Positions 25,771 to 43,100 of a stretch of 64,000 bases of DNA are shown in pieces. Position 1 is the first letter of the stretch; every line of letters starts with the position of its first letter. This DNA is from Candidatus Hydrogenedentota bacterium (GTDB lineage: Bacteria; Hydrogenedentota; Hydrogenedentia; Hydrogenedentales; JAEUWI01). Under the pieces are notes generated by a model that made no database searches, had not been told where the DNA came from, and saw nothing but the letters and a program-made list of their open reading frames with translations. Location of the stretch: assembly GCA_019637335.1 (NCBI GenBank), contig JAHBVV010000004.1, forward strand, positions 80,471 through 144,470. Reading direction: 5' to 3'. The translations under genes were made by a program, and so were the position numbers.

Positions 25771-28700
25771 TCATTTGTCCTGGAGCTCATCCAACAACAC
25801 CTGATACCGCTCCAGGTTCTCGTCCATCAACGCCTTCAATCGCTTCATCTCCTCCGTCTGCTCGCGCGTCTCCTTGAAGATGGGCGCGAGCCAGCCCTGC
25901 ATCAGCTTGAACTGCTCGCTCATCACCCCGACGAGCGCGGCGGGCACTTTCGACACGACGTTCACGGTCGTCGGAACGGGCTCGTGCACGGGCGCGGCTT
26001 CCGTTGCCTCACGGGAGGCCGCCATCTGCGCCGCGCCGGATTTCATGGCGGCGGCGATAGATTCGAGGCCGTCGTTAATGCTGCCCAGCTGCACCAGCAC
26101 CTGGCCCACCGCCTGATCGTCGCCAAGCCCCTTCAGTTTCAGGTTCTTCGTGAAGGTCTTCTTGATGCTGGCCCAGCGCTCCGCCTCGGACTCGCTCAGC
26201 TGGCCCGTCAGCTCCTTGAACTTGAGCATGTTCGCCTCGGCTCCGCTCGTGAGCGTCTGTGAATCGCCCTCGTAGCTGCTGTTGATCAGCGTGCGCAGTT
26301 CGGCGTCGTTCAACAGATCCAGCACGCGCTCGGCGATGCGGTTCATGTTGCGGTAGGAACCCTGGAGCTTGAACGCGGGCTCCGTGCGGTAGTCCTCGTG
26401 GATGCCGGCGGACCGGATGTACTCCTTGTTCACCGTCAGCACGGTGTCCCGCACGAAGAGCAACTTCTTCATCACGTTCACCATGCTGTTGACTTCGTCC
26501 AGCGAGAAGCTGCCCTTCAGGTCGATGCCCTCGCGGCTGCCCGTCTGCGCCATGCGGATAATCGCGTAGACGTCGTCCTGGCTGCGCGCCGCGAGCTGGT
26601 TCAGCACCGGGTTCGAGGTCAGGCAGTTCTCCAGGTAACTCGTCTCGAAGTCGTCGGCGCTGTCGCCGATGATCTCGCCGAGGTTATACGTGTCGGCGCG
26701 GTTGGCCAGCATGTCGGGAATCTGAAACTTCTCGCCGCTTTCCGTGTAGGGGTTGCCCGCCATGACCACGGCCACTTTTTTGCCGCGCAGGTCGTAGGTG
26801 CGCGTCCGGCCCTTGTGCACGCCCTCGATCTTCCGCTGCGCGTCGCACAGGGAGATGAACTTCTGGAGGAACTCCGGATTACAGTGCTGGATGTCATCCA
26901 CATACAGCATCACGTTATCGCCCATTTCCAGCGCGAGGTTCAGCTTCGCCAGCTCCTCGCGCGCGGCGGCGTTCGTCGCTTCGGAGGGGTCGAGCGAGGT
27001 AACCTGGTGCCCGAGCGCGGGGCCGTTGATCTTCATGAAGATCAGGCCGAGACGGTTCGCGATGTATTCCATCAGCGTCGTCTTGCCGTAGCCCGGGGGC
27101 GAGATCAGCAGCAGCATGCCCGACCGGTCCGTGCGCTTCTGGTCGCCCGCCGCGCCGATCTGCTTGGCCAGGTTGTCGCCGATCAGCGGCAGGTAGACGT
27201 TGTCGATCAGCCGGTTCCGCACGAAGGACGTCAGGACGCGCGGCTTGAACTCGTCCAGCCGCAACGCGACGGCCTCGTCCTCCACGAGCTGCTTCTTCCG
27301 CGCGACATAGGCCTCGTAGCGCGGCACGGTCTCCTGCCGGTAGGCCGCCAGGCGGGCCATGAACGTATTGTAATTCAGCAGGTACTTCCCGCCCTCCAGG
27401 AGCGCGTGGCTGCCCGCCAGGCCCGACAGCTCCGCTGTCGAAGTGGCGTGGATGATGCGGCTGATGTCGTGGTCGCCCGTCAGGATCAACGCGGCGGTTT
27501 CATCGACATAATCCCGCTCCACCGCCACGCCCCGGCTCCGGACAAAGGCGCCCGCCCAGTCGCGGCAGAGGAGGAAGGCGCTGTTCGGGTTGGGCCGCGC
27601 CTCGTTCAGGGAGGCCTCGAAGCGCGCCGCAAAGTCGTTCTTTTTCAGGTGCATCAGGAAATCCTGATACAGCCGGTCCGCGTTTTCGCTGATGGCCGCG
27701 CCGCCGCCGCGCACCAGGATCTCGAACAGGTACCGCGCCGCCTCGCCCGCCCAGATCGGGTCGAAGGCCTCGGTTTCCGCCAGGTACGCATCAATCAGCC
27801 CGTGGAGTTCGGCCGTGTAATGGCGCTGCGCCTCCGCGTCGCCGAACAGTTCGCGGATGACGCCGAAGCCCTTCAAGGTGCTTGCTATTCGCGCTTTCGT
27901 CTCCTCTTCCCGGAACTGATGCCAGAACACCGACGCCAGCGCGCGGGCGATCGGGTGGAACGCGAGCAGCCCGATTGACGCCTCCATATCGAGCAGCGCG
28001 CGAAGGATCAGCGCCGCGTCGTGATCGTGCACGCCCTTTACATAGCCCTCGGAATACCGCGATCCCATGTATTTCTGGATGAAGGCCTGCAACGCCTCCG
28101 GGGACATCGCCCGGAGCTCCTCCAGCTCCATCCCGCCCGGCGCACGGGTCTCCTCCAGGATTAAGTAGGCCAGGTACTCGGCCCGGTATACCGAATCGTT
28201 CTCCGACATCACCTCCTGGGACCACAGATCGCGCGTGGCCAGGAACGCTTCGTCCCGGATCGGGTCGAAGTAGTTCGTTCCGGCCAGGTGGAAATACATC
28301 TCCCCATCGCGCATGACCGTGGTCAGCGCGAGGTCAAACGTATTGACCGTGAATTTGTGCGCGCCGAAGCGGATGACGTTCTCGCCCTCGGTGAACAGGT
28401 CCAGCCGGTCCTTGAGCTGGCGGACCGCGTCCTCGCCGATGGTCTTCAGCCGGCTTTGGACGTCATCCAGCTTGACGGTGTCTCCCAGATCCCGCAGCTC
28501 GTCGATGATGCCGCGCACCTTCTCGATCATGAGATCGGAGGCAAAGTACGCGTGTATCTCCTCGACTGCCTTGAAGGTCGCCACGCGGCTCTTGATACCG
28601 TTCAGGATACGGTCCGCCGCCTGCATGAGGGCCGTCGCGCGCTTGTTCTGGCGCTCCTGGAGCTGGATCTTCCGCGATTCAAACGCGTTGTACGCCTCCT

Positions 28701-30948
28701 CGCGCTTCTCCGTGAGTTGCATCACGAATTCGTCGAATTCGGCGAAGCGCCCTTCCAGCTCCTCGATCTGCACCATCACCCGCGTGAGGTACTCGTCGCA
28801 TTTCGGGATGGTGTCGCACAGGTCGATGTAGTTCGCCACGGCCTGATTCAGCAGCTTGATCTGCGAGTTGAACTCGGCGATCCCCTCGGAGCGCCCCAGG
28901 TCGCGGGTCTTGTTCTTCAAGTGCGACCGCGTCTTGTTCAGCGTGGCGAAAATTTCCGAAATTGCGTCGATAATCGCCGTGCGCTGGGTCGCGTCCTCAA
29001 TACGCAGGTTGCTCACGACGTCGATCAGCAATTCCAGGTCCGCCGCCTGCCGATCGATCTCTTCGCCGAGCGCGCGGGCGTCCGACACCTTCTGGAGCCC
29101 GTCGATCTTGCCGGCGTGACCCTGAACGGCTTTCTCGTAGGGCGCCAGCGACTCCGGGCGCAGCAGAAACTCGACGCAGCGCTGCCCGAGATCCTCCGCC
29201 AGCCCCGCCAGCCCCTCCTGAAGCGCCTCCACGGCGGGCAGGTCCATGTATTTCACATCGCGCAGGGCGATGATGCGCCCCCGGCACGCGCGCACGCCCG
29301 CGAGCGAGTCCACAAAGTCGTGGATACTCTCGAACAAACGCGCGCCCGCCGCTTTCGTGATTTCGTCGGCCTCGGCGGCGGCGGCGGCGAGCTGTTCTTT
29401 CGCGTTCCGCCGCGCGTTGGAGACCTTCTCGAATTCGCTGATCGCCGCCTGGCCGGCATCCCGGATGGCGCTAAGGTCGACCTTCAGATTGAAGGTTTCC
29501 TCGTTCCCGATCCAGTGGTACACGTCAAACATGACGCTGATTTTCTTGACGATATCGCCGTAGAGATTGGCGTAGCTATCCTCCTTGGCAATGAGATTCA
29601 GCACCTCGTTGCAGTCCGCCATGCCGCGGACAATATCCTTGTTGCCAATTTTGAACAGCATGGAGTCCGACTGCTCGGCAACGGGCAGGTCCGCGCTGCG
29701 GTAGGGCGTCTGCCAGATCTGCAGGGCGTGATTCCGCTGGGCTTCCGGCGCCGCCTTGAAATAGATCATCTCGCCGTTCTTGAAGATGGAGTATCCGTTG
29801 CAGGGAATCGGCGTGTCCACGGTCTGCGTGATCACGTTGTAGGAAAGCAGGACGTAGTCGCCCTTCTCCCGGTTGTAGAAGACGAACAGATAGTCCTCCC
29901 CGTTGCTGGAGGGGAGCCGCTTTTCGAAGAGCATGTCCCGGTAGCCGCCGCCGAAGGACTTCTGCTCGCCGGTCTGCAAAACGTACCCGTTGGCGTGGAT
30001 GATCCCGTGCTCCTCGGGAAGCAGCACGCAGGATTCCTGGATGGCGTCGATCCGGTAGACCTTCTGGTTCTTCTCGCAGAAGACCAGGTAGCGCCACGCA
30101 TTTTCCTGGTACGGCCGGATCTTGAGCAGGATCAGGTTCCCCACGATCGCGTAGAAGAACTCCGCATCGTCCAGCGTCTGGTCCTTGTCCTCCACCGGCT
30201 CCTGATAGATGCCGAGGCCGCTTTCGGTGTTGTTCTCCACCTTCACCGTCAGGTCGCCGCCCACGGTTTCGACGAACACCCGGTCTTCGATGGAGACGTG
30301 CGGGTGGCGCCCCTGGTAGTGCATGTCGCGGTGGGTGCGCTTCCACTCGAACTCGTGTTGCGGCGGAAAGCGGTACTCGTGATCGCTGCGGTTGTCCATA
30401 TACCGCAGCGCGTCGCCGTCCACGGCCCACTTGAAGACCTTCACGTCCGTGACGTTCTTCCCCACGCGGAACACCATGAACAGGTGCGGGCCGATGAAGG
30501 AGAACTTGGCGAAAACGGTGTTCTTGTAGTACTTGAACAGCTCCTGGAAGTCCCGCGCGAAGGTCTCGTCGCCGATCAGGTCGAGGGGCTCGCGAACGAG
30601 CGTGCGCCCGTCGAGCCGGTAGACCGAGAACACGTCCTCCAGCGCGATCTGCGACTTCAGGCCGATGTGCACGTTGTACCCGAAGATAAACCGGTCGCCG
30701 ATCGGCGCCATATCCCGCGGAATGCAGCTGTGATCGGTCGTAATGTGCTCGGTGGCGAGCAGCTTCGTCTCGATCGCGCCGAAAACGGCCTTCCGCGCGG
30801 CGTTGAGCTTTTCCAGCCGCTCCTGGAGCGCCTTCCCGCCTTTCGCGAGGCGGTTGCGTATGATTTCATACGCGCCCGCCTCCAGGCTGTCGCCGCCCGC
30901 TCCGTCGAGCGCGTCGGGGGCCGGAGCCATCTTTTCCACTTCAGCCAT
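25771..30948 (-). CDS. giant (1725 aa) multidomain protein: beta-rich N-terminus, ~500-aa coiled coil, MoxR/AAA_5-like ATPase domain
   Basis: Walker A LLLISPPGYGKTTLMEY (nt ~27076-27126), Walker B VMLYVDDIQH, sensor VVMAGNPY. Heptad-rich region LKVDLSAIRDAG...EELEGRFAEFDEF... Stop-free ORF with coherent codon usage. Confidence 0.85.
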   Translation of the reverse strand: MAEVEKMAPAPDALDGAGGDSLEAGAYEIIRNRLAKGGKALQERLEKLNAARKAVFGAIETKLLATEHITTDHSCIPRDMAPIGDRFIFGYNVHIGLKSQIALEDVFSVYRLDGRTLVREPLDLIGDETFARDFQELFKYYKNTVFAKFSFIGPHLFMVFRVGKNVTDVKVFKWAVDGDALRYMDNRSDHEYRFPPQHEFEWKRTHRDMHYQGRHPHVSIEDRVFVETVGGDLTVKVENNTESGLGIYQEPVEDKDQTLDDAEFFYAIVGNLILLKIRPYQENAWRYLVFCEKNQKVYRIDAIQESCVLLPEEHGIIHANGYVLQTGEQKSFGGGYRDMLFEKRLPSSNGEDYLFVFYNREKGDYVLLSYNVITQTVDTPIPCNGYSIFKNGEMIYFKAAPEAQRNHALQIWQTPYRSADLPVAEQSDSMLFKIGNKDIVRGMADCNEVLNLIAKEDSYANLYGDIVKKISVMFDVYHWIGNEETFNLKVDLSAIRDAGQAAISEFEKVSNARRNAKEQLAAAAAEADEITKAAGARLFESIHDFVDSLAGVRACRGRIIALRDVKYMDLPAVEALQEGLAGLAEDLGQRCVEFLLRPESLAPYEKAVQGHAGKIDGLQKVSDARALGEEIDRQAADLELLIDVVSNLRIEDATQRTAIIDAISEIFATLNKTRSHLKNKTRDLGRSEGIAEFNSQIKLLNQAVANYIDLCDTIPKCDEYLTRVMVQIEELEGRFAEFDEFVMQLTEKREEAYNAFESRKIQLQERQNKRATALMQAADRILNGIKSRVATFKAVEEIHAYFASDLMIEKVRGIIDELRDLGDTVKLDDVQSRLKTIGEDAVRQLKDRLDLFTEGENVIRFGAHKFTVNTFDLALTTVMRDGEMYFHLAGTNYFDPIRDEAFLATRDLWSQEVMSENDSVYRAEYLAYLILEETRAPGGMELEELRAMSPEALQAFIQKYMGSRYSEGYVKGVHDHDAALILRALLDMEASIGLLAFHPIARALASVFWHQFREEETKARIASTLKGFGVIRELFGDAEAQRHYTAELHGLIDAYLAETEAFDPIWAGEAARYLFEILVRGGGAAISENADRLYQDFLMHLKKNDFAARFEASLNEARPNPNSAFLLCRDWAGAFVRSRGVAVERDYVDETAALILTGDHDISRIIHATSTAELSGLAGSHALLEGGKYLLNYNTFMARLAAYRQETVPRYEAYVARKKQLVEDEAVALRLDEFKPRVLTSFVRNRLIDNVYLPLIGDNLAKQIGAAGDQKRTDRSGMLLLISPPGYGKTTLMEYIANRLGLIFMKINGPALGHQVTSLDPSEATNAAAREELAKLNLALEMGDNVMLYVDDIQHCNPEFLQKFISLCDAQRKIEGVHKGRTRTYDLRGKKVAVVMAGNPYTESGEKFQIPDMLANRADTYNLGEIIGDSADDFETSYLENCLTSNPVLNQLAARSQDDVYAIIRMAQTGSREGIDLKGSFSLDEVNSMVNVMKKLLFVRDTVLTVNKEYIRSAGIHEDYRTEPAFKLQGSYRNMNRIAERVLDLLNDAELRTLINSSYEGDSQTLTSGAEANMLKFKELTGQLSESEAERWASIKKTFTKNLKLKGLGDDQAVGQVLVQLGSINDGLESIAAAMKSGAAQMAASREATEAAPVHEPVPTTVNVVSKVPAALVGVMSEQFKLMQGWLAPIFKETREQTEEMKRLKALMDENLERYQVLLDELQDK

Positions 30949-30998: not shown

Positions 30999-33008
30999 TC
31001 AGAGGATCTGGCTGAGTTTCTTCTTGCTGAAGCCGAACTGCTTCGCCAAGCCGGCGAGGATGTCGAACTCGCCCTCGTCGGCTTCGGATTCGGCAAGCCC
31101 GCGCATCTTGTTGAGCAGCGCCGCGACGGACAGGTTCTTCACGTCCTCGCTGCCGATGCCAAACTGCTGCGTGAACTGCTCCATCCGCGCCTTGAAATAG
31201 GCCGGATCGCCGTTGAAGAAGGTATTCTTCACGTCGGTCAACGCGCGGCTGTTGTCCACCAGGCGATCGACGGACTTCCCGTTGGTGATCGCGCTCGTGA
31301 TCTTGTCGAAGAACTGCGCCTCGCCGCCGACGATGTCGATCCGGGCGCTCTTGAGGGCCTCTCCCAGGATGGCCGCCTGCTGGCGCGCGATCTCTTCCTG
31401 CGCCGCGATAGCCGCCAGTTCGATGGCCTTCGTCTTTTCCAGGTTGAGCTTGAACTCCTCGTGCTCGCGGCCGACCTCGTTGAAGAGCTTCATCGCCTCG
31501 GCCTTGTCCGTGATGCCCTTGGCGTCGGCCTCGAACTTAAGCTGCATCACCTCGGCTTCCGCCTCGCCCTGCTTCTTCGTCGCCGCCGCGCGCGCTTCCA
31601 GGCCCCTCGCCTCGGCGACGGCCTTGCTCTCGATCACCGCCGCCTCCGCCAGGCCCGCCGCCGCCTGCTCCGCCGTCACGCCCTCGGCCAGCAGCTTCTT
31701 GCCCACCGCCTCGCGCTCGCTCGCGTCGCGCAGCGCCTCGGCCGAAATGACCTGCTCTTCCGCGCTGAACCGGGCCGCGTCGCGGCGCGCCTCGGCCGCC
31801 TTGATCTCCTTGACGAGGGCTTCCTGGGCATTCTGCTCGGCCGCCGTAATCGCGACTTTCTTGGCGCGTTCGGCGGTCGCGAATTCCTGCGTGTCCTTGA
31901 TGCGCTCCTGCTCCTCGACCACCGCCCGCTCGACGATCACCCGCTCGCGGATCACGTCCTGGATCGCCTTCTTCTCCACCTCGATGGCCTTGTCCTTCTC
32001 GATGGCCGCCAGCGCCACCACGCGCTCCCGTTCCGTCGCTTCGAGCATGCGGTCCTTCTCCACGCGCTCCTTCTCCACCTGGTCCGTGCGCTCCTTGTTG
32101 CGCAGCGCCACGATCACCTGCCGGTCCTTGTTCTCGTTCGCGATCGCCACCTCTTCCTCGGTGGTGATCCGCGCGCGCTCGGACTTCAGGCGCTCCTCTT
32201 CCTTGATTTTCGCGGCCTCGGCCTGCTCGCGCGCCTGCACGGACTCGATCTCGCGCAGCTGCTTCGCTTCCGCCTCCGCCTGCTGGCGCTCCAGCTCCAG
32301 GATCGCCTCCCGCGCCTCCACGTCCTGCTTCTTTATGATCTTTTCCTTGTCGCGCGTGATGCTGTTCGCCAGAATCTGCTGCTGCGCGGTCAGGTCCGTG
32401 ATCTTCTTGATGCCCTCGGAATCCAGGATGTTGTTCGGATCCAGCTGGTTCATCGGCGTCTGTTCGAGGTAGTCGATCGCCGCGTCGTCCAGCACGTACC
32501 CGTTCAGGTCCCGACCGATAATATTGAGGATCTCTTCCTTGAACTCCTCCCGCGACGTGTACAGCGCGATGAAATCAAACTTCTTGCCCACGGTCTTCAG
32601 CGCTTCGGAAAACTTCGCGTCGAACAGCTCCTCCAGCTTCGACTCCTCCGACGCGCGCGCCGCGCCGATGGACTGCGCCACCTTGAGCACGTCTTCCTCG
32701 TTGTTGTTGACGCGCACGAAGAACGCCACCTTGATGTCCGCGCGGACGTTGTCCTGGCAGACCAGGCCTTGCGCGCCGTGCCGGAAGATCTCGATGCGCC
32801 GCACGGAGATGTCCATGACCTCATGCTGGCGTATCAGCGGCAATACGATTGCCTTCGAGAAATGCACCGAGGGCTTGCTGCCGCCGGTGATAATGAGCGC
32901 CGTGCCCTGTTCGACCTTCCGCCAGCATTTGATCACCATCACCATAATGGCGACCGCAATGACGCCCACGAAGAGCGCCACTATCCCAATGAGTCCCTGC
33001 ATTTTCAA
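30999..33008 (-). CDS. flotillin / SPFH (band-7) domain protein, YqiK/FloT-like
   Basis: N-terminal TM, then SPFH core (KCWRKVEQGTALIITGG...DISVRRIEIFRHGAQGLVCQDNVRADIKVAFFVRV). Long EA-rich coiled coil and flotillin C-terminal region. Confidence 0.85.
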   Translation of the reverse strand: MKMQGLIGIVALFVGVIAVAIMVMVIKCWRKVEQGTALIITGGSKPSVHFSKAIVLPLIRQHEVMDISVRRIEIFRHGAQGLVCQDNVRADIKVAFFVRVNNNEEDVLKVAQSIGAARASEESKLEELFDAKFSEALKTVGKKFDFIALYTSREEFKEEILNIIGRDLNGYVLDDAAIDYLEQTPMNQLDPNNILDSEGIKKITDLTAQQQILANSITRDKEKIIKKQDVEAREAILELERQQAEAEAKQLREIESVQAREQAEAAKIKEEERLKSERARITTEEEVAIANENKDRQVIVALRNKERTDQVEKERVEKDRMLEATERERVVALAAIEKDKAIEVEKKAIQDVIRERVIVERAVVEEQERIKDTQEFATAERAKKVAITAAEQNAQEALVKEIKAAEARRDAARFSAEEQVISAEALRDASEREAVGKKLLAEGVTAEQAAAGLAEAAVIESKAVAEARGLEARAAATKKQGEAEAEVMQLKFEADAKGITDKAEAMKLFNEVGREHEEFKLNLEKTKAIELAAIAAQEEIARQQAAILGEALKSARIDIVGGEAQFFDKITSAITNGKSVDRLVDNSRALTDVKNTFFNGDPAYFKARMEQFTQQFGIGSEDVKNLSVAALLNKMRGLAESEADEGEFDILAGLAKQFGFSKKKLSQIL

Positions 33009-33081
33009 ACCCTCCAGTATCGATCCGTTGGTGAGTAGTTGTTGTCAATCCGGGGCCGGAGCCCGCCGCCGTCGCGATGCC

Positions 33082-33732
33082 CTATACCGCGTCTGGCTCC
33101 GTCTTATTCACGCTTCCTTCAAAGGGAGCGATAATGTACGTTCCATCTTCCTCCCGCGCGACCACCACCGCCTCGTCTCCTTTACGCATGGTGACGCCTT
33201 CGCGGGTCTTCACGTTGAGCAGCAGCGGGGCCCCCTTCATCGGCAATTCCGCCTGCCCGCGCTTCGGCGTGGCCTCCAGCGAGGCCACCACGCACAATTG
33301 CCCGATAATCTGAACCGAATCGCCCGACTCGTCGAACAAGTTTTTGAGCAACGGCACGAACGGCTTCAGCGAAAACCTGGTGAGCACCAGCCCGGCCAGG
33401 AAAATCGGCACAAAAAGCACCGCCGCCAGCAACAGGCTCGCGTTGCCCGTGTAGTAATTGGTGAGAATCGACAGGCACCACATGGAGACGCTCAGCACGG
33501 AAACCACCAGGGTGACCGGCACATCGGCGGCGTACACGAACCGCATCACGGCCCCCAGGCCGAGGCAACCGCTGCCGTCGGCGTCCACGTCGCCATCCCC
33601 CAGATCGAAATCCAGCAGATCGGCCCCGATCGCGCCCGCGATGTAAGTCAGCCAGTACAACCCGCAGAGACCAAACAGGATGGTGTACGGCAAATTTACC
33701 GGCCGGATGGCCTCTTGAAGCACCTCAATCAT
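33082..33732 (-). CDS. YqiJ-like inner membrane protein (DUF1449, NfeD-like partner of flotillin)
   Basis: Start MIEVLQEAIRP. Polytopic membrane N-terminus plus C-terminal soluble beta-rich domain. Sits upstream of the flotillin gene as in E. coli yqiJK. Confidence 0.6.
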   Translation of the reverse strand: MIEVLQEAIRPVNLPYTILFGLCGLYWLTYIAGAIGADLLDFDLGDGDVDADGSGCLGLGAVMRFVYAADVPVTLVVSVLSVSMWCLSILTNYYTGNASLLLAAVLFVPIFLAGLVLTRFSLKPFVPLLKNLFDESGDSVQIIGQLCVVASLEATPKRGQAELPMKGAPLLLNVKTREGVTMRKGDEAVVVAREEDGTYIIAPFEGSVNKTEPDAV

Positions 33733-33856
33733 GCCCTGCACTCCCAAGATACGCAGTCCCGAATACCTGAGGGACGCCATAGTGGCACGACAACACGCCA
33801 CCGGTCAACAGGTGCGCACGTGTTCCCGTGCAGGGAGTACCGTATTGCCCCTGAGT

Positions 33857-34051
33857 TTATTCGATCGCGATGACTTCCAAGGATTCGGCCAGCGCGCTGT
33901 CCGAGGGCGCGAAGGCGCACTGCGTCATGGGACAAGTGGCCCGACCGGCGGTGTGATTGTCCATAAACCACCGGTGGGCGGCGTCGTGGTGAAGGTGAGT
34001 AGGCCTGGCAAGCGCCAGCAGAACGTTCACGTCGAGCAGGGCGACGCTCAA
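33857..34051 (-). pseudogene. vapC: truncated VapC (PIN-domain toxin), N-terminal 64 aa only
   Basis: MSVALLDVNVLLALARPTHLHHDAAHRWF is a PIN N-terminus. The ORF stops after 64 aa where an intact VapC needs ~130. The next gene starts ~55 bp later. Confidence 0.5.
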
Positions 34052-34749: not shown

Positions 34750-37593
34750 ATGCTCCATCGCCGCGCCTTATGCTCGCCCACTTCAGCCCTCGCGCTTCTC
34801 GCCATGCTTGTTTCCACAGCCGCCGCCACTCTCACCCCCGAGCGCCTTCGCTGCGAGTACCTGGAGAATCCCCTCGGCATCGACGTCGCCGTCCCGCGCC
34901 TCTCCTGGATCGTCACCTCCGGCGAACGCGGACAGCGCCAGACCGCCTGGCAGATTCAGGCGGCCTCCACCCCGGAAAAACTTGCCGCGGGCGATGCCGA
35001 TCGCTGGGACTCCGGCAAGGTGGAGAGCGACGAAACCCTCCACATCCCCTACGGCGGCGCGCCGCTGCATTCCCGCGCGCAGGTCTTCTGGCGTGTCCGC
35101 GCGTGGGACATGAACGGCGCCCAGGGCGAATGGAGCGCTCCCGCCGCGTGGTCCATGGGCCTGCTGGACAAGGCCGAATGGACGGCGGCGTGGATCAGCT
35201 TCAAGGACGACACGCCCTTCGATGCGTCGCAGGAGAAGATGGTCCTGCCGCCCGCGCGCTATTACCGCAAGGACTTCGCCGCGCCGAAGGAGATAAAGCG
35301 CGCCACCATCTATGCCACGGCGCTCGGGATCTACGAATTCTCCCTGAACGGCGAACGCATCACCGACCAGCTATTCGCGCCCGGCTGGCCGGACTACCAC
35401 CAGCGCGCCTACTACCACACCTACGACGTCACAACCCGCCTCCAGCAGGGCGACAACACCTGGGGCGCCATCCTCGCGGACGGCTGGTACAGCGGCTACC
35501 TGGGCTACGGCCTCCTTGTGGGCTACGGCCCCAACAAATCCGGCCGCGCCTTCTACGGCAAGACCCCCGCCTTCCAGGCGCAGCTCGAAATCGAGTATGC
35601 CGACGGCTCGAAGGAGATCGTCATCACCGATCCCACTTGGAAAACCGCTACGGGACCGATCCTGATCGCGGACATGCAGATGGGCGAGACCCACGACGCG
35701 CGCCTGGAAATGCCCGGCTGGGATGCGCCGGGCTTCGACGACGCCGCCTGGAAATCCGCCATCCACGCCGAGGACAACGGCAGCATCCGGGTCCCCTATT
35801 GGGATCAGGGCGGCGGCAAAACCGTCGAGCTCGGTTTCCAGGAGCCGCCGGTCTACCAGTCCCACCCCGGCGTTCCCATCCGCCCGATCGAACGGATCGC
35901 CGCGAAATCCATCAACGAGATCGAATCCGGCGTCTACATCGTCGACTTGGGCCAGAACATCTCCGGCGTGGTCGAATTGAAGGTCAAGGGTCCCTCCGGG
36001 ACGCGCGTCCAACTGCGCCACGGCGAAATGCTCCATCAGGACGGCACGCTCATGACCGAAAACCTCCGCAAGGCCCTGGCCACGGACGTCTATATCCTCA
36101 AGGGCGACCCGGACGGCGAAACCTGGCGGCCCCGTTTCACCTTCCACGGCTTCCAGTTCGTCGAGGTGACCGGCCTGCCCGAAGCGCCCACGCCCGACAC
36201 CGTCACCGGCGTGGTCATCCATTCTGACACCCCGCTCCGCAGCCAGTTCGCCTGCTCCGACGACATGGTCAACCAGCTCTTCAGCAATATCGTGTGGACC
36301 CAGCGCGCCAACTTCCTCGAACTGCCCACGGACTGCCCCCAGCGCGACGAACGCCTCGGCTGGACCGGCGACGCCCAGATCTACGCCCGCACCGCCACGA
36401 TCAACGCGGATGTGGGCGCCTTCTTCACCAAGTGGATCCAGGACCTCGAAGAGGCCCAGAAGCCCAACGGCGCGTACCCCGAGTACGCGCCCCACCCCAT
36501 GAACCACGGCCGCGACGGCATCTCCTGGGGAACCGGCTGGATGGACGCAGGCGTCATCGTGCCCTACGCCGTCTACCAGGCCTACGGCGACACCCGCGTC
36601 ATCGAGCGCCACTACGACGCCATGGCCCGCTTCATGGAATTCCGCCGGAGCCTCGCGCCCGACTTCCAGGGCGTCTTCACCGGCAACGACTGGGGCGACT
36701 GGCTCTCCCTCAGCAAGACCCCCATCGAATACATCGATGCGTGCTACTTCTACTACACCGCCAGCCGCATGGCCGAAATGGCCGACGCCATCGGCAAGAC
36801 GGAAAACGCCGCGAAATATCGCGACTGGATGAGACAAATTCAGGCCCGCTTCGTCAAGAACTACCTGAACGACGACGCCAGCCTGGCCGTGCGGACCCAG
36901 ACCGCCTACGCCGTCGCCCTCAACGTGGGCATCCTCCCCGAGGGCCAGCGCGGGGCCGCCGGCGACCGCCTCGCCGCACTCATCGCCGAAGAAAACCACG
37001 CCATGAGCACCGGCTTCATCGGCACCCATCCCCTCCTCCCCGCCCTCACCGACACCGGCCACCACGACCTCGCCGTCCGCCTCCTCCAGAACCGAAAATA
37101 TCCCTCCTGGGGCTTCCCCGTCGTCAACGGCGCAACCACCGTGTGGGAGCGCTGGAACAGCTACACCATCGAGGGCGGCTTCGTCGCCGGCATGAACTCC
37201 TTCAGCCACTACGCCTTCGGCGCCGTCTGCGAATGGATGTTCACCGACCTCGCCGGCATCGACACCGACGGCCCAAGCTACAAACACATCATCCTCCGCC
37301 CCGGCATCCCGAGTGCGGGGAGCAATCCGGATTTCGCCCCGATTGAATGGGTCGAAGCCGAGTATGACTCGATTCGAGGGAAGATTAAGGTGGCGTGGAA
37401 GAAGACGGAGTCGGGATTGGAATGCAACGTGACGATACCCGCGAATACGACGGCGACATTGGAGCTGCCTGTCGGCGAGGGTGCGGTGGTGACCGAGGGT
37501 GGGAGGGCGTTGGCGGAGGCGGGGATTGCGGTGGAAAGTGATGGGAAGATGAGGCTGGCGGCGGGAAGTTATCAAATTGTACAGTCGAATTGA
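34750..37593 (+). CDS. alpha-L-rhamnosidase (GH78), secreted
   Basis: Signal peptide MLHRRALCSPTSALALLAMLVSTAAA. GH78 N-terminal domain LRCEYLENPLGIDVAVPRLSW..., six-hairpin catalytic region and C-terminal beta-sandwich. Confidence 0.85.
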   Translation: MLHRRALCSPTSALALLAMLVSTAAATLTPERLRCEYLENPLGIDVAVPRLSWIVTSGERGQRQTAWQIQAASTPEKLAAGDADRWDSGKVESDETLHIPYGGAPLHSRAQVFWRVRAWDMNGAQGEWSAPAAWSMGLLDKAEWTAAWISFKDDTPFDASQEKMVLPPARYYRKDFAAPKEIKRATIYATALGIYEFSLNGERITDQLFAPGWPDYHQRAYYHTYDVTTRLQQGDNTWGAILADGWYSGYLGYGLLVGYGPNKSGRAFYGKTPAFQAQLEIEYADGSKEIVITDPTWKTATGPILIADMQMGETHDARLEMPGWDAPGFDDAAWKSAIHAEDNGSIRVPYWDQGGGKTVELGFQEPPVYQSHPGVPIRPIERIAAKSINEIESGVYIVDLGQNISGVVELKVKGPSGTRVQLRHGEMLHQDGTLMTENLRKALATDVYILKGDPDGETWRPRFTFHGFQFVEVTGLPEAPTPDTVTGVVIHSDTPLRSQFACSDDMVNQLFSNIVWTQRANFLELPTDCPQRDERLGWTGDAQIYARTATINADVGAFFTKWIQDLEEAQKPNGAYPEYAPHPMNHGRDGISWGTGWMDAGVIVPYAVYQAYGDTRVIERHYDAMARFMEFRRSLAPDFQGVFTGNDWGDWLSLSKTPIEYIDACYFYYTASRMAEMADAIGKTENAAKYRDWMRQIQARFVKNYLNDDASLAVRTQTAYAVALNVGILPEGQRGAAGDRLAALIAEENHAMSTGFIGTHPLLPALTDTGHHDLAVRLLQNRKYPSWGFPVVNGATTVWERWNSYTIEGGFVAGMNSFSHYAFGAVCEWMFTDLAGIDTDGPSYKHIILRPGIPSAGSNPDFAPIEWVEAEYDSIRGKIKVAWKKTESGLECNVTIPANTTATLELPVGEGAVVTEGGRALAEAGIAVESDGKMRLAAGSYQIVQSN

Positions 37594-37674
37594 TCGTATC
37601 GAGAAGGCTTCACCCTAACGTATACGTTCCTTGCACAGTGGAGACTACTTGGTCGCATCTCAGAGGGAGGCTAT

Positions 37675-38366
37675 TAGTGAGAACTGAAGGAAAACTGAAT
37701 CACCAACCTCAGGAGGCGATTGTGGGGAGCCTGCGCGGGCAGCAGAGGGCACTCTACGAGGCCTTCACGGATCGTGACCGTCGATTGGCCAGAATCTATC
37801 TGGGCAGCCTTCAGATACTCGACTCCGAAAACTGCAATAGACTCGCTCTCGCAGCGCATGGCATTCGCGAGCTACTGACGGAGCTGCCTCAACACTTCAA
37901 GGTAGACCTAAAAGCGTATAAACAGAATCTTGGGAGCAAAGTTCGGGAACTTGAGGATGCTTGGGCAACGGTCTCGTCCAAGAGCAACTGCATAGAATCA
38001 TGTAAGTGGTCGGGTGAGATTGATGGACCTCTTTCAAAATTCCTGACACAGATGCACACTTTCATTGATTGGGTAAGAGTACATATGCCCCGACGCAAGG
38101 ACGAAGCCGCAGAGACGCTATTCGCATTAGACCCTGCTCGAGGTCGACTACCGAAGGACATAGAAAGAATCCATGTGGACCTTTGGTTCAAGTTGCGCGA
38201 CTACTTCGTCGGCATTGCCCATCATGGCGGTGACCCTTCCTGGGATGAGTTTTCCCAATATCTAGACGAACTCGAACGATTCCTGCTTGACAGGCTATCG
38301 CCCCGAACGTTTAGTGATATGGACGAAATCGATTCGCTCATAGCGCACGGTGAATCAAATGATTAA
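37675..38366 (+). CDS. hypothetical protein, possible HEPN-like (R-x5-H) motif, encoded in low-GC island
   Basis: GGGAGG RBS with GTG start 6 nt later (the track ORF starts at an earlier TTG). NRLALAAHGIRELL contains an Rx5H arrangement. Local GC is clearly lower than surroundings. Confidence 0.45.
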
Positions 38367-41250
38367 CCAAGCCACTATCGATAGAGCTGTCGACCTTATC
38401 GGCAAGGGCTATAGTCAATACGATTATTTCTTTTCAAATTTATCCTCACCGGAGTGGATTCTTCCGCTTCGAGAAAAGGGCTTTTTCTCCAACCCACTTT
38501 CAACAATCCGAAGAGACGGGAGCGAATACTGGCTTCGTTGGCCGGAGTCTCGGTACTTGGCACGAATAGCCGCATCAGGACCCCAAGAAGTTCTTACCGC
38601 CTTCCAAGGAATTCCAAAAACGGACAACCCATTCATTCACGCAGACATCGTAGAAGCAGCCCTCAAGATCCCAGCAGATATGGCTGCACCGTTGACAAGA
38701 ATAGAATGTGAGTGGTTGAAGACGCAAAGCTACCTAGGCACATTTGCTGAGGATTATGGAGCTTTGATTTCCCATCTTGCGAAAGGTGGTGAGGTCACGC
38801 AGGCGTTAGAGTTTGCACAGGTATTGCTCGATATTATACCGGATCCAAGATTTGTAGATGCCGATGTGAACTCTGATGCTGATGCCGACGCCGAGTTTGG
38901 AATTCCCTCCTCCCCGCGCCCCAAGCCGAGGCTTCGAGATTGGTACGAAAAAGTGCTAGGGACCAATGTGCCGGACTTGGTGGCAGTGGCAGGTATCGAT
39001 TCTGTGAGGCTGTTTTCCAACCTCCTGGCGAAGGCAATAAGGCTTTCACACAGAGATCCGAGCTCTCTCCAGCCGAACGACCATTTGGACTTTCAATTGC
39101 CGAATCTGGAGGAGCTCGATGAAGTATCCAGAGGAGACACCAGGGTTCTACTCGCGAAGACCTTGCTTCAAGTAGTCGAGCAGGCTGTGTCCCAAAACCT
39201 AAACAATCTTGCAAAGGTACTAGAGATTCTAGATTCCAACAATTGGAATATCTTCACTCGCATTGCTCTGTATACATTGACAAGAGTAACCGAATCAGTT
39301 CCTGCTCTCTGCAGAAGATACGTACTCGATCCAAAGTTATTCCAAAATGGTGGGATTGAGAGCGAATACTTCAACCTTTTGCAAGGCTCTCTTGCATCGA
39401 TGTCTAAAGACGAGCGCAATACTCTTTTTCGCTGGATTCAGAACGGCCCGCCCGACTTGCCGGCCTATATGTCGGACGGTCAGGAGGAGAAAGAAAGATA
39501 TGTCAAATCTTGGAAGTGTCGCCGCTATCACGTCTGCCGAGAACATATTTTTGGAGAATACGAAGTTGAGTACAGTCGACTCCTCGAAGAAGTAGGCTCG
39601 GAAGGTACCGCTACCTTTCAGAGGCCACCGAAGATTTGCCATACATGGTTCGGACCACTTGGCCCTTGCACGCCCGAAGAGCTTGGTGAGCGCACTGACG
39701 CGGAAATCATTCAATATATATCCACGTGGATACCGAAGAGCAATTTGATGGAGCCTACTATAGAGGGGTTGGCTCGTACGCTCAGAACCGCTGTCGAACG
39801 CGATGGTCAGAGATTTTCGCAGATGGCCGAACAATTAATTGAGCTCGATCCGACCTATGTTCGGGCGTTATTTGGAGGACTTGAAAATGCCATCAAGAAA
39901 GCGTCCTACATCACTTGGGGAGCAGTACTGAAACTGGCTCAGTGGGTTGTGGAGAAGCATGGAGACGAACCTGATACGGACGACTATACTGGAGATCGTG
40001 ACCCCGGGTGGAGTTGGACTCGAAAGCGCATTGCGTCACTGCTTGAGACTGGGCTCAACCCATGCGAGTCGGAGATACCGTTCGAGCATCGCCAGGATGT
40101 TTGGGTTGTTCTAGAGACACTCTGTGAAGACTCTGACCCAACGCCCGAGTACGAAGCAGAATATGGGGGAACGAATATGGGGCCAATAAATCTATCCCTC
40201 AACGTCGTCCGAGGCCGGGCAATCAGCGCCGCCATTGGTTATGCGTTGTGGGTCAAACGGCATCGTCTGGCCGGCCTAGAAGAGGACGGAGCCGCCGTCA
40301 GCTGGGTTGAGCAGATACCAGAGGTGTTTTCCGTCTTGGAATGTCACCTGGACCCCAAAAAGGACCCCTCACCCGCGATACGCTCAAACTATGGGCAGTA
40401 TATTCCGCAACTCATTTGGCTAGATGAGGGGTGGACAAGAGCTAATGTATCGAACATCTTTGGGATCAGCAGAAGAACTACTCTCGAGGAAAGCGCATGG
40501 AGTGCCTTCATGTATTTCTGCCAACCAAGCACTAAATTACTCGGTGTACTCGCACCAGTCTATCGATACGCGGTCGAGCATCTGGCCCCATCACCTGATG
40601 AGAACGCTGACGGCTTCGACCAGGGCGCAAGACTTGGGCAGCACCTAATCACCTACTACGTATGGGGAATACTGGAGAACGCCAATATCGAGGGCATGCT
40701 GTCTCAATTTTTCAAGAATGCAGAAGACCGGCTAAGAAGCGAAGCCATTGACTATGCAGGCGAATTCTCTAACGGGTGCCCGGAGGACGAACTGCCCAAA
40801 TTGAAAAGTCGTCTCATGCATCTTTGGCGTGACAGACGAAAGATTATTGACGATGCTCCTGATGTTGACAAGTACAAAGAGGAAATCTCCGCATTTGGAT
40901 CTTGGTTCGTTTCCGATGCATTTGAAGAAGACTGGGCATTGGATCAACTGGTTTGGGCCTTGCAGTCCTCAAAGAAAGTTCGTTCCGCTCACCTAGTTGT
41001 GAAGAGGCTTTCCAATTGCTCGGATCAAGACTTACCTGCGGCACTGATTTGCTTGAAATCAATGATGGAAGGAGATGAGCAGGGGTGGGAAATCTCCAGC
41101 TGGCGAAAAGATGTAAAGCGCTTGTTGCGGAAGTGTCTTGATAGCGAGTCTCAAGACTTGTCAGCGCGAGCCGAGAACGTCATTCACTGGTTGGGTGCTC
41201 GAGGCTTGTCGGAATATCGAAGTCTTCTTACCAAAGCAGACTCGCCATAG
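38350..41250 (+). CDS. large (966 aa) hypothetical protein, no recognisable motifs, low-GC island
   Basis: Stop-free ORF overlapping the upstream gene by 17 bp. Mostly helical composition. No P-loop or nuclease motif recognised by eye. Confidence 0.6.
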   Translation: MNQMINQATIDRAVDLIGKGYSQYDYFFSNLSSPEWILPLREKGFFSNPLSTIRRDGSEYWLRWPESRYLARIAASGPQEVLTAFQGIPKTDNPFIHADIVEAALKIPADMAAPLTRIECEWLKTQSYLGTFAEDYGALISHLAKGGEVTQALEFAQVLLDIIPDPRFVDADVNSDADADAEFGIPSSPRPKPRLRDWYEKVLGTNVPDLVAVAGIDSVRLFSNLLAKAIRLSHRDPSSLQPNDHLDFQLPNLEELDEVSRGDTRVLLAKTLLQVVEQAVSQNLNNLAKVLEILDSNNWNIFTRIALYTLTRVTESVPALCRRYVLDPKLFQNGGIESEYFNLLQGSLASMSKDERNTLFRWIQNGPPDLPAYMSDGQEEKERYVKSWKCRRYHVCREHIFGEYEVEYSRLLEEVGSEGTATFQRPPKICHTWFGPLGPCTPEELGERTDAEIIQYISTWIPKSNLMEPTIEGLARTLRTAVERDGQRFSQMAEQLIELDPTYVRALFGGLENAIKKASYITWGAVLKLAQWVVEKHGDEPDTDDYTGDRDPGWSWTRKRIASLLETGLNPCESEIPFEHRQDVWVVLETLCEDSDPTPEYEAEYGGTNMGPINLSLNVVRGRAISAAIGYALWVKRHRLAGLEEDGAAVSWVEQIPEVFSVLECHLDPKKDPSPAIRSNYGQYIPQLIWLDEGWTRANVSNIFGISRRTTLEESAWSAFMYFCQPSTKLLGVLAPVYRYAVEHLAPSPDENADGFDQGARLGQHLITYYVWGILENANIEGMLSQFFKNAEDRLRSEAIDYAGEFSNGCPEDELPKLKSRLMHLWRDRRKIIDDAPDVDKYKEEISAFGSWFVSDAFEEDWALDQLVWALQSSKKVRSAHLVVKRLSNCSDQDLPAALICLKSMMEGDEQGWEISSWRKDVKRLLRKCLDSESQDLSARAENVIHWLGARGLSEYRSLLTKADSP

Positions 41251-41259
41251 CGAATCGTC

Positions 41260-42360
41260 ACCCGTTCCCAAGCTCTGTTTCGAAGCCTATGTCGCCCCTC
41301 CGGGACTTATGTGGCGGGGATGGGCCTTGATCCCAGGACTTGCTTCGCTGCGCCCTGGGCTACGATATGCCGCCACTTCGTGGCTAAGAAATGTTATTCA
41401 CTCATTCCCAGGCTCCGCTTGGGAGTGCAGTTCCCGAAGCTCCGCTTCGAAGGGCCGTAACGCGTCTGTGTCGCCCCTCCGGGACTTATGGGGCGGGGAT
41501 GGGTCTTGATCCCAGGACTTGCTTCGCTGCGCCCTGGGCTACGATATGCCGCCACTTCGTGGCTAAACCGGCGCTCGACGTCCAGTTGCTGGTGAGTGGT
41601 CGAGAGATTACGCTCTGGCCTACAGCACGCCCTGATGGGAGCCGTACCCCCAACCGAACGGCCAGCGCAGGAATCCGCGCCGAGGGGTCGCATTGCGGAA
41701 ACCATGCGCTGCCCACACGCCCATCCCCCATGGAGGCCAACGCAAGAATCAGTCGCGAGGCAGCGCCATATACACTCGTTCCCAGGCTCCGCTTGGGAAT
41801 GCAGTCCCCCAAGCTCTGCTTCGGAGGGCCGCAACGCGCCTATGTCGCCCCTCCGGGACTTATGGGGTGGGGATGGGCCTTGATCCCAGGACTTGCTTCG
41901 CTGCGCCCTGGGCTACGTTATGCCGCCACTTCGTGGCTAAGAGATGGTCGTGGCGGGGCACCCACAAGCCTTTGCGGCGAAGCCGCAGAGCTTGAGGGTG
42001 GCACCCTCGGGCTGCCGATGGTGATTGCGGTCGGGGTTGCGCTCGAGAACCGGGTTTATGATGTGAGGCTTGGATTCTGCTGGCGACTCCGGTGGGGAAA
42101 TACCCCTTGAACCTGGCTGTGCGACATTCCGCGCGATCGTACGCCACGGTCGACGGGGCCTGGGTGCATCAGGGCTATCGATCGGGGTACGTCCCTTCGC
42201 GCCTTCCCCCGCTCTGCTTAGAAACGCGGACCCCGAAGGGTCGCAATGCGGAAACCATACTCGGCCCACACCCCGTCACCCAAGGGGGCCAACGCAAGAA
42301 TCAGTCGCGAGGCGGCGCCATATCGTAGCCCAGTGGCGAGCGTAGCGAGTCCTGGGTCAC
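41260..42360. repeat. REP array, ~95-bp unit (cgcccctccgggacttatggggcggggatgggccttgatcccaggacttgcttcgctgcgccctgggctacgNtatgccgccacttcgtggct) in both orientations, plus a second ~150-bp repeat
   Basis: Units at ~41281, 41468, 41841, and inverted partial ones at 41390 and 42300-42360. The gcattgcggaaaccat...ggccaacgcaagaatcagtcgcgaggc segment is repeated at 41690 and 42240. Confidence 0.75.
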
Positions 42361-42414
42361 CCGCGCACAGCGCCTAAGAAAGTCCCAACGGGGCGGCATA
42401 GGCCCCGCGTCCGT

Positions 42415-42867
42415 TCAGTCCCAGATGTACTGCGGATCGTATTCCACCTCGTGGGCTTTCAAGAATCCCAGGTACTCCGCCTTAAACGTGTATTTGGCGT
42501 GATGGACCTCCTGGTTCTGGACGTATCGATAAACGGTTTCCTTCTGGCTCGCACTCACGGTGAAGGCGCCGTAGCCCGCCTGCCACGCGAAATCGGAGAG
42601 CGCCGGCCAGGTGCGGTGAATCCAGCCGGAGCTGTTGGATTTGATTTCGGACAGTACGTTCTTGAGTGCGTGGTTCTGGCTCAATTTCACCAGAAGGTGA
42701 ACGTGGTCTTCGGTGCCGTTGATGATGAGGGGGATGCCGTCCACGCCCTGCACCGCGCCCGCGAGGTAGCGGTGCACGTCCCCGCGCAGATTGGGCGTAA
42801 GAAATCGTACGCGGCCCTTGGTAGAAAAGACAAGGTGGTAGATGAGATTGCAGTGTGTCTGTGACAT
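42415..42867 (-). CDS. REP-associated tyrosine transposase (RAYT), IS200/IS605 Y1 family
   Basis: LIYHLVFSTKGRVRFL, HVHLLV (HxH) and the C-terminal Y in VYRYVQNQ. Flanked by REPs on both sides in both orientations. Confidence 0.85.
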   Translation of the reverse strand: MSQTHCNLIYHLVFSTKGRVRFLTPNLRGDVHRYLAGAVQGVDGIPLIINGTEDHVHLLVKLSQNHALKNVLSEIKSNSSGWIHRTWPALSDFAWQAGYGAFTVSASQKETVYRYVQNQEVHHAKYTFKAEYLGFLKAHEVEYDPQYIWD

Positions 42868-42924
42868 GGTGGCCTCCCGTGATGTGCGCCATTGCAGTAT
42901 AGTGTTGTTTTTGGAGTTTACCGA

Positions 42925-43100
42925 TGGGAGGAGGCGTGAATCCAGAACGCGCCTATGTCGCCCCTCCGGGACTTATGGGGCGGGGATGGGCCTTGATCCC
43001 AGGACTTGCTTCGCTGCGCCCTGGGCTACGTTATGCCGCCACTTCGTGGCTAGGAAATGCTATTCGATGGCCCAGTGGCGAGCGAAGCGAGTCCCCTCCC
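42925..43100. repeat. REP copy plus inverted partial copy on the right flank of the RAYT
   Basis: Same 95-bp unit at 42955-43050, then an inverted fragment cccagtggcgagcgaagcgagtcc. Confidence 0.6.

Follow-up and report, generated by a model that had tools for sequence, protein, structure and literature searches.

A split two-gene cassette with a Dsr1/Avs7-type sensor and a predicted HEPN-like effector in a Candidatus Hydrogenedentota genome

The window, the whole stretch of 64,000 nucleotides that was analysed, comes from a metagenome-assembled genome (MAG) of Candidatus Hydrogenedentes/Hydrogenedentota and contains a compositionally foreign island with two overlapping open reading frames (ORFs), here termed ORF-A and ORF-B. 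With a probability of roughly 0.7, this cassette was acquired by horizontal transfer and acts against phages, its two genes forming a system that uses the Dsr1/Avs7 sensor scaffold and in which the ORF-A effector replaces the sirtuin. Dsr1, the defence-associated sirtuin 1, is known from work by Gao and colleagues in 2020, by Garb and colleagues in 2021/2022 and by Lee and colleagues in 2026. The positions of the features described below are collected in Table 1.

ORF-B matches the PADLOC model of Dsr1 (PDLC04166) with an E value of 8.3e-40. The members of the ORF-B family align with the Dsr1 profile from about position 293-307 to about position 1115-1215, which is the entire part that follows SIR2. 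The canonical SIR2-Dsr1 proteins P0181 and P0182 match the ORF-B family profile with E values of 1e-10 and 2e-8, respectively, and an hhalign comparison of the family with one canonical SIR2-Dsr1 extends over 537 columns (E=1.8e-4). These alignments establish ORF-B as a homologue of the whole non-SIR2 part of Dsr1, with no enzymatic domain. Pfam has no match to ORF-B, and a SIR2 domain is absent from both ORFs according to Pfam, PADLOC and NCBIfam. The AlphaFold2 model of ORF-B (predicted local distance difference test score, pLDDT, 87.4; predicted template modelling score 0.65) is an entirely helical solenoid. A Foldseek search of a PDB copy that contained no Dsr1 or Avs7 structure returned generic HEAT/ARM solenoids only, the highest TM-score belonging to Avs4 bound to a phage portal. 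Sequence and profile searches of the PDB gave nothing meaningful for either ORF-A or ORF-B. The strongest motif of the ORF-B family, WPESRYLAR, is situated in its conserved N-terminal region (Y23-R69 in ORF-B).

The association of the two ORFs was surveyed in 80 loci, each from a different GTDB species and all sampled among relatives of the window locus. A HEPN-like gene and a separate sensor gene are found in 51 of these loci and a HEPN-like domain fused to the sensor in 22, so that the HEPN-like module lies directly upstream of the sensor, or is part of it, in 73 of the 80. A SIR2 gene takes this place, as a separate gene, in five loci, and two have some other arrangement. Two variants of the module can be distinguished, a longer, ORF-A-like domain (A1-type) and a shorter one (A2-type). 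Among 143 further representatives, 90 consist of the sensor only, 48 carry a fused A2-type domain and five a fused A1-type domain. Of the 51 split loci, 46 have an effector stop codon that overlaps the sensor start; an overlap of 8 nucleotides is the most frequent (21/51) and often has the identical sequence ATGATTAA found in the window.

The same association is seen when the search starts from either partner. Three ORF-A homologues led to five contigs, in each of which an overlapping ORF follows. This ORF is complete in four contigs (944-958 residues), and the three that were compared directly are ORF-B homologues, with E values of 1e-127 to 1e-163. Conversely, an ORF-A homologue precedes each of the two ORF-B homologues P0008 and P0007. 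The ORF-A profile also matches the N-termini of the sensors P0071 (1.8e-86), P0132 (3e-68) and P0131 (1e-53), and more weakly those of P0121, P0122, P0128 and P0178, while P0002, P0004, P0005, P0012, P0013 and others have an A2-type domain fused to the sensor. The two types are collinear with their motifs in register when aligned by hhalign (E=0.0057), and P0178, P0179 and P0180 match both profiles. An effector swap is seen at P0009 (loci L004 and L005), where a 320-residue SIR2_2 protein lies upstream of the sensor. The conserved pairing, the fusions, the effector swap and the locus survey, as four independent lines of evidence, identify ORF-A as the effector module; judged by this gene organization, it is functionally linked to ORF-B and holds the position equivalent to that of SIR2.

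The sensor family is large. A word-indexed search found 13 homologues of ORF-B and a profile search 122, while an exhaustive hidden Markov model search of 50%-identity clusters retrieved 9,139 cluster representatives at E<=1e-3, of which 4,535 also passed E<=1e-30; the top 150 were all full length with more than 950 bits. The initial annotation had called the 966-residue protein an orphan; with about 9,100 cluster representatives matching the sensor profile this label has to be dropped, and the idea of a rare orphan was rejected once the 13 word-indexed hits had become thousands. The sensor loci are patchily distributed over many bacterial phyla, candidate phyla radiation bacteria and archaea, and no homologue of ORF-B was found in phage genomes. 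Near the homologues there are integrases, transposases, PIN toxins, CHAT and HNH genes and methyltransferases. The initial annotation had suggested looking for homologous pairs in defence contexts, and the pair is indeed conserved, with homologues close to integrases, transposases and PIN toxins. Its suggestion that the pair is of an anti-phage type is likewise supported, by the Dsr1-type sensor and by the conservation and fusion of the pair across phyla.

The island differs sharply from its surroundings. The guanine-plus-cytosine (GC) fraction along the window is 0.63-0.66 until about 37250, falls to 0.47-0.55 at 37500-41250 and is at least 0.62 from 41250. The island as a whole has a GC fraction of 0.504 versus 0.633 for the remainder of the window, which is the minimum of 242 sliding windows of equal length (mean 0.624, standard deviation 0.027). 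Its tetranucleotide distance of 0.466 is the maximum in the window (mean 0.199, standard deviation 0.056). The GC fraction at third codon positions (GC3) is 0.535 in ORF-A and 0.52 in ORF-B, as against 0.865 in the upstream rhamnosidase gene, 0.775 in the RAYT gene and 0.825 in the next downstream gene. The GC drop, the foreign composition and the presence of two overlapping genes, all reported in the initial annotation, are borne out; the two genes lie on the same strand. The island was almost certainly acquired horizontally, as a defence module. There is no tRNA gene in the window, no integrase gene in the window near the island, and direct repeats bounding the island were not found in its flanks.

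ORF-A is predicted by AlphaFold2 (pLDDT 89.6) to consist of nine helices. A Foldseek search of the PDB gave no significant match. Similarities of fold are weak and occur side by side with those to generic helical bundles, the best natural matches being HEPN RNases. HI0074, Csx1-Crn2 and Roquin are also relevant to the kind of effector. ORF-A has a conserved C-terminal helix (E200-D219). Pfam, NCBIfam and PADLOC, version 2 of which has no model for ORF-A, produced only a sub-threshold match to pP_pnuc_1 (PF18165). In an alignment of 26 ORF-A sequences the residues A60, H61, R64, E65, W96, F129, R140, P159, F177, H182, L203, P209 and T211 are invariant. A wider alignment, which adds A2-type and other split or fused domains, retains a common core of [AS]-H-x2-R-[ED] and, further on, [AT]-H; where ORF-A has its second motif, the fused subtype has A-H-R. 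The residues conserved in this way, His, Arg, Glu and His, look catalytic.

The initial annotation had considered the small protein HEPN-like on account of an R-x5-H arrangement. The string NRLALAAHGIRELL does carry R55-x5-H61, and that part of the claim stands. In five of the 26 A1-type relatives residue 55 is Lys, His, Ser or Tyr, and the A2-type domains lack an equivalent of it, so R-x5-H is not the defining motif; as the active site of ORF-A, the canonical HEPN R-x5-H was rejected, and the resemblance first noted is weak. ORF-A is nevertheless described here, tentatively, as a HEPN-like predicted nuclease because of its conserved motifs, the pP_pnuc_1 matches and the analogy with RnlA. The chance that it is specifically an RNase appears to be a little below even.

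Comparison with known systems places the cassette close to Dsr1, though not within it. As in Dsr1, the sensor likely controls an N-terminal effector, and the ORF-B family includes a split form made of SIR2 plus sensor. Dsr1 is one polypeptide with an N-terminal SIR2 NADase, whereas the cassette has no SIR2 and obtains its small helical effector from a separate, overlapping gene. Depletion of NAD+ is therefore not expected. SIR2 is missing, two genes are involved, and the score under the NCBIfam Dsr1 model is 11 bits where the cut-off is 1400. Strictly speaking, the locus is therefore not Dsr1, but a member of the Dsr1/Avs7 sensor superfamily.

Avs7 is a STAND NTPase, and its sensor is shared by Dsr1 and by further proteins in which a STAND NTPase is missing (Lee et al. 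2026). NADases, nucleases and kinases are the effectors reported in combination with this sensor (Lee et al., Nature 2026; preprint January 2026). SeAvs7 and EcDsr1 are both triggered by the phage major capsid protein (Lee et al., Nature 2026). The N-terminal effectors in Avs7 occupy the position taken by ORF-A. Sensors of this superfamily have a bilobed, sharply bent repeat architecture, beside which the ORF-B model shows an all-alpha solenoid with generic structural matches. The homology of ORF-B to the Avs7 sensor follows from the link between Avs7 and Dsr1 in Lee et al. and from a Haloferax fusion. The fusion, a 1364-residue protein on the Haloferax gibbonsii plasmid pHG3 (locus L093, NZ_CP011950.1 91742-95836), joins an AAA_16 NTPase to a full ORF-B-type sensor (E=9e-84). 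This protein, annotated as "AAA family ATPase", is followed by an overlapping 486-residue "ATP-binding protein", and the pair resembles Avs7 in its arrangement, here in an archaeon, but shows no obvious effector domain. ORF-A and ORF-B, unlike Avs7, have no NTPase domain, and any oligomerization would therefore be independent of nucleotides.

The closest published counterpart is a fused "HEPN-like RNase" homologue from Streptomyces sp. NBC_00271, which was only modelled (Lee et al. 2026). Compared by its description, it has the same sensor and an effector of the same superfamily, but it is one fused polypeptide with a short A2-type domain, whereas the window has the longer A1-type as a separate gene. 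A homologue on a Streptomyces NBC_00212 plasmid similarly combines an A2-type domain (E=9e-50) with the sensor (E=1e-137). In view of these two proteins, the fused form has to be regarded as already noted. For the split form, with an A1-type effector and the sensor as two genes, no published description was found in a search that covered the text of the paper by Lee et al. The proposal of the initial annotation that the cassette type had not been described does not hold for the sensor family or for its fused HEPN-like variant, both of which are in Lee et al. 2026. The cassette is related to a known system, from which it differs by the split and the exchanged effector, and does not represent an undescribed kind.

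Two further families bear on the effector. HEPN RNases act as dimers, and a canonical HEPN dimer is the active form of RnlA, which uses R255 and E258 on one helix in addition to R318-x4-H323; this is a plausible analogy for activation of ORF-A by sensor-driven proximity. ORF-A differs from RnlA/LsoA in having no detectable sequence similarity to them, no conserved R-x4-6-H and no Foldseek match, and in being paired with a sensor where theirs is an antitoxin. The family pP_pnuc_1 resembles the ORF-A family in the helix A-A-H-G-x-R-E. The ORF-A family differs from it in covering one third of the profile, below threshold, and in having no Argonaute/PIWI neighbour. In the five contigs to which the ORF-A homologues led, none of the listed genes gave a PIWI hit. 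An Argonaute-associated system was rejected, there being no PIWI neighbour and pP_pnuc_1 being below threshold. A literature search on pP_pnuc_1/PF18165 gave nothing useful, and one on DUF4020 gave nothing.

In the proposed mechanism, the approximately 960-residue alpha-solenoid of ORF-B would act as the receptor, and the probably translationally coupled ORF-A would most likely dock as effector on the conserved N-terminal region of ORF-B. The trigger is probably a conserved phage structural protein that binds ORF-B, the major capsid protein being the precedent by analogy with EcDsr1 and SeAvs7. Binding would relieve autoinhibition, drive oligomerization, or both. The ORF-A modules would be brought together and switched on as a nuclease, most likely an RNase of the HEPN kind. 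The predicted active site comprises H61, R64, E65 and H182, and RNA, possibly DNA, would be degraded. Phage replication or host growth would then stop and the infection would be aborted.

Several observations weigh against this reading. The nearest sensors linked to SIR2 share only about 25-30% identity with ORF-B, and the similarity of ORF-B to canonical Dsr1 is much lower still; because of this low similarity, the trigger may differ from the capsid protein. The canonical HEPN R-x4-6-H motif is not conserved in the ORF-A family, and in the wider alignment His61 is changed to Tyr in two homologues. The pP_pnuc_1 profile matches 20 of the 26 family members, all below the gathering threshold of 26.3 bits (ORF-A scores 13.1 and the best relative, P0032, 24.5), and the alignment is confined to positions 6-42 of 133. 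The cassette is outside any recognizable defence island in its genome. A promoter scan found no sigma-70-like promoter upstream of ORF-A.

Alternatively, the cassette would be the same defence system with an ORF-A that is not a nuclease but another kind of effector or an adaptor, which for example binds a host factor, as Avs7 recruits EF-Tu, acts as a membrane or metabolism toxin, or regulates the sensor. The weak and mixed fold matches, the missing canonical motif and the Tyr variants would agree with this, as would EF-Tu, which is reported to be a structural component used by SeAvs7. Such a role is nonetheless unlikely: ORF-A lies exactly where SIR2 is found in the five loci mentioned above and in Dsr1, its conserved residues have the catalytic look already described, HEPN RNases are its best natural fold matches, and the label HEPN-like was chosen independently by Lee et al. 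for the fused domain. As to the Tyr variants themselves, they are the partner of P0008 (L001:5321-6004) and the N-terminus of P0128, which read AAYCLRE and AAYSLRD, the Glu being replaced by Asp in P0128. The residue may be non-catalytic, or those copies may be inactive.

The pair might instead have no part in immunity and constitute a selfish or addiction-type module, or serve another cellular function, sharing merely the solenoid scaffold. No defence genes adjoin the cassette in the window, and all homologues are annotated as hypothetical, which speaks for this explanation. It is quite improbable in view of the strong full-length homology of ORF-B to the Dsr1 sensor, the exchange of SIR2 and a STAND NTPase on the same sensor, and a distribution that is patchy, crosses domains and places homologues in mobile and defence contexts.

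Still less probable, to a degree that it can hardly be expected, is that the cassette is what remains of a transferred element in decay and has no current function. Its composition is not ameliorated, no clear promoter was found, and homologous loci are disrupted (by an IS3 element in a Legionella plasmid, and in L023, L053, L072 and L082). Both window ORFs, however, are intact and full length, covering 99-100% of the family profiles; all conserved motif residues are present in ORF-A, and the coupled overlap is preserved. An acquired two-gene defence system thus remains the preferred reading.

Table 1. Positions of the features of the cassette and its surroundings, numbered from the first nucleotide of the window
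Feature	Position	Strand	Basis or remarks
Compositionally foreign island	37594..41250	.	Rhamnosidase stop to ORF-B stop; GC, GC3, tetranucleotides
Shine-Dalgarno-like GGGAGG	37664..37669	+	7 nucleotides upstream of the ORF-A GTG
ORF-A, 229 residues, all-alpha effector module	37677..38366	+	GTG start; identical to GenBank MBX3177134.1
Motif 1, R55-x5-H61-x2-R64-E65	37839..37871	+	AGA 37839-41, CAT 37857-59, CGC 37866-68, GAG 37869-71
Motif 2, H182-H183 (CAT CAT)	38220..38225	+	H182 conserved in all aligned effector domains
ORF-A stop/ORF-B start overlap, 8 nucleotides, ATGATTAA	38359..38366	+	Sequence
ORF-B, 963 residues, Dsr1/Avs7-type alpha-solenoid sensor	38359..41250	+	ATG start; MBX3177135.1
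ORF-B segment, residues 199-854 (966-residue numbering)	38944..40911	+	Dsr1 profile positions 509-1121 of 1227
Cluster of REP-like units around RAYT	41216-43053		
Four REP-like direct copies, each up to 172 nucleotides	41216-41387, 41395-41566, 41769-41940, 42882-43053
REP-like inverted arm, 54 nucleotides	42303-42356
RAYT (Y1_Tnp), 150 residues	42415-42867	-	Pfam E=1e-22

The mechanically determined ORF-A begins with TTG at 37590, and the GTG given in Table 1 is the likelier start. An alternative GTG start of ORF-B at 38350 extends the protein to 966 residues. The overlap of the two ORFs is consistent with their translational coupling. A gap of 83 nucleotides (37594-37676) separates the rhamnosidase stop from the ORF-A start. 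The cassette may be transcribed by read-through from the rhamnosidase gene, or from a non-canonical promoter; a terminator scan of the cassette revealed nothing convincing.

The upstream neighbour is an alpha-L-rhamnosidase with five domains. Downstream, the first repetitive extragenic palindromic (REP)-like copy adjoins the ORF-B stop. The initial annotation took the RAYT/REP neighbour as a sign of mobility or defence. This is unsupported, since nothing connects RAYT/REP with the cassette, and the neighbour appears to be incidental. PADLOC found no convincing defence match in the neighbouring genes. Elsewhere in the window, at 25771-30948 (- strand), a 1725-residue protein contains DUF3686 ("ATPase involved in DNA repair", E=1.7e-187), DUF7902 and an AAA domain; its only PADLOC match is a weak, LmuB-like one (9e-5). 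The large ORFs beside it, at 30999-33008 (- strand) and 32524-33873 (+ strand), have no Pfam match. The protein may represent an uncharacterized giant ATPase system.

Some sensor homologues deviate from the common organization. In the 68-kilobase plasmids of Legionella pneumophila (H2, H3, H6) an IS3 transposase lies inside the sensor match. The match is split across reading frames in L023, L053 and L072, and in L082 it spans 4.1 kilobases, which suggests an insertion. Together these copies point to frequent inactivation of sensor genes across the homologous loci. In two Actinomycetota MAGs (L057:1988-6808 and L069:1985-6802) the sensor, without a HEPN-like or SIR2 module, is in one frame with a DUF255/Thioredox_DsbH (YyaL-like) region of about 665 residues (Pfam E=1.3e-43); this could be a true fusion or reflect the loss of a stop codon, or the region could be a different partner of the sensor. 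In P0211, a metagenomic representative of 1307 residues, an N-terminal HTH_3 domain (residues 116-168, E=2.9e-10) precedes the effector-plus-sensor part and suggests a built-in transcriptional regulator.

No new principle emerges from the cassette, and its value to the field is incremental, since swaps of effectors are to be expected and a fused form is on record. In Dsr1 and Avs7, large repeat sensors coupled to interchangeable killing domains detect conserved phage proteins. Among the relatives sampled here, a small uncharacterized helical effector is paired with the Dsr1-type sensor far more often than a sirtuin is. This effector is usually encoded by a separate overlapping gene, the split A1-type form being the majority. 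Present defence-finder models miss the pair or see a partial Dsr1 match only. The pair bears on a large family of "hypothetical" proteins and on the control by a sensor of an effector supplied in trans. It is conceivable, although doubtful, that the split pair represents a very widespread class sensing capsid or other structural proteins, whose effector is a new H-x2-R-E...H nuclease family delivered in trans and distantly tied to HEPN and pP_pnuc_1. If this is true, Argonaute-based and Dsr1/Avs7-based immunity would share an effector toolkit of SIR2 and pP_pnuc_1-like domains.

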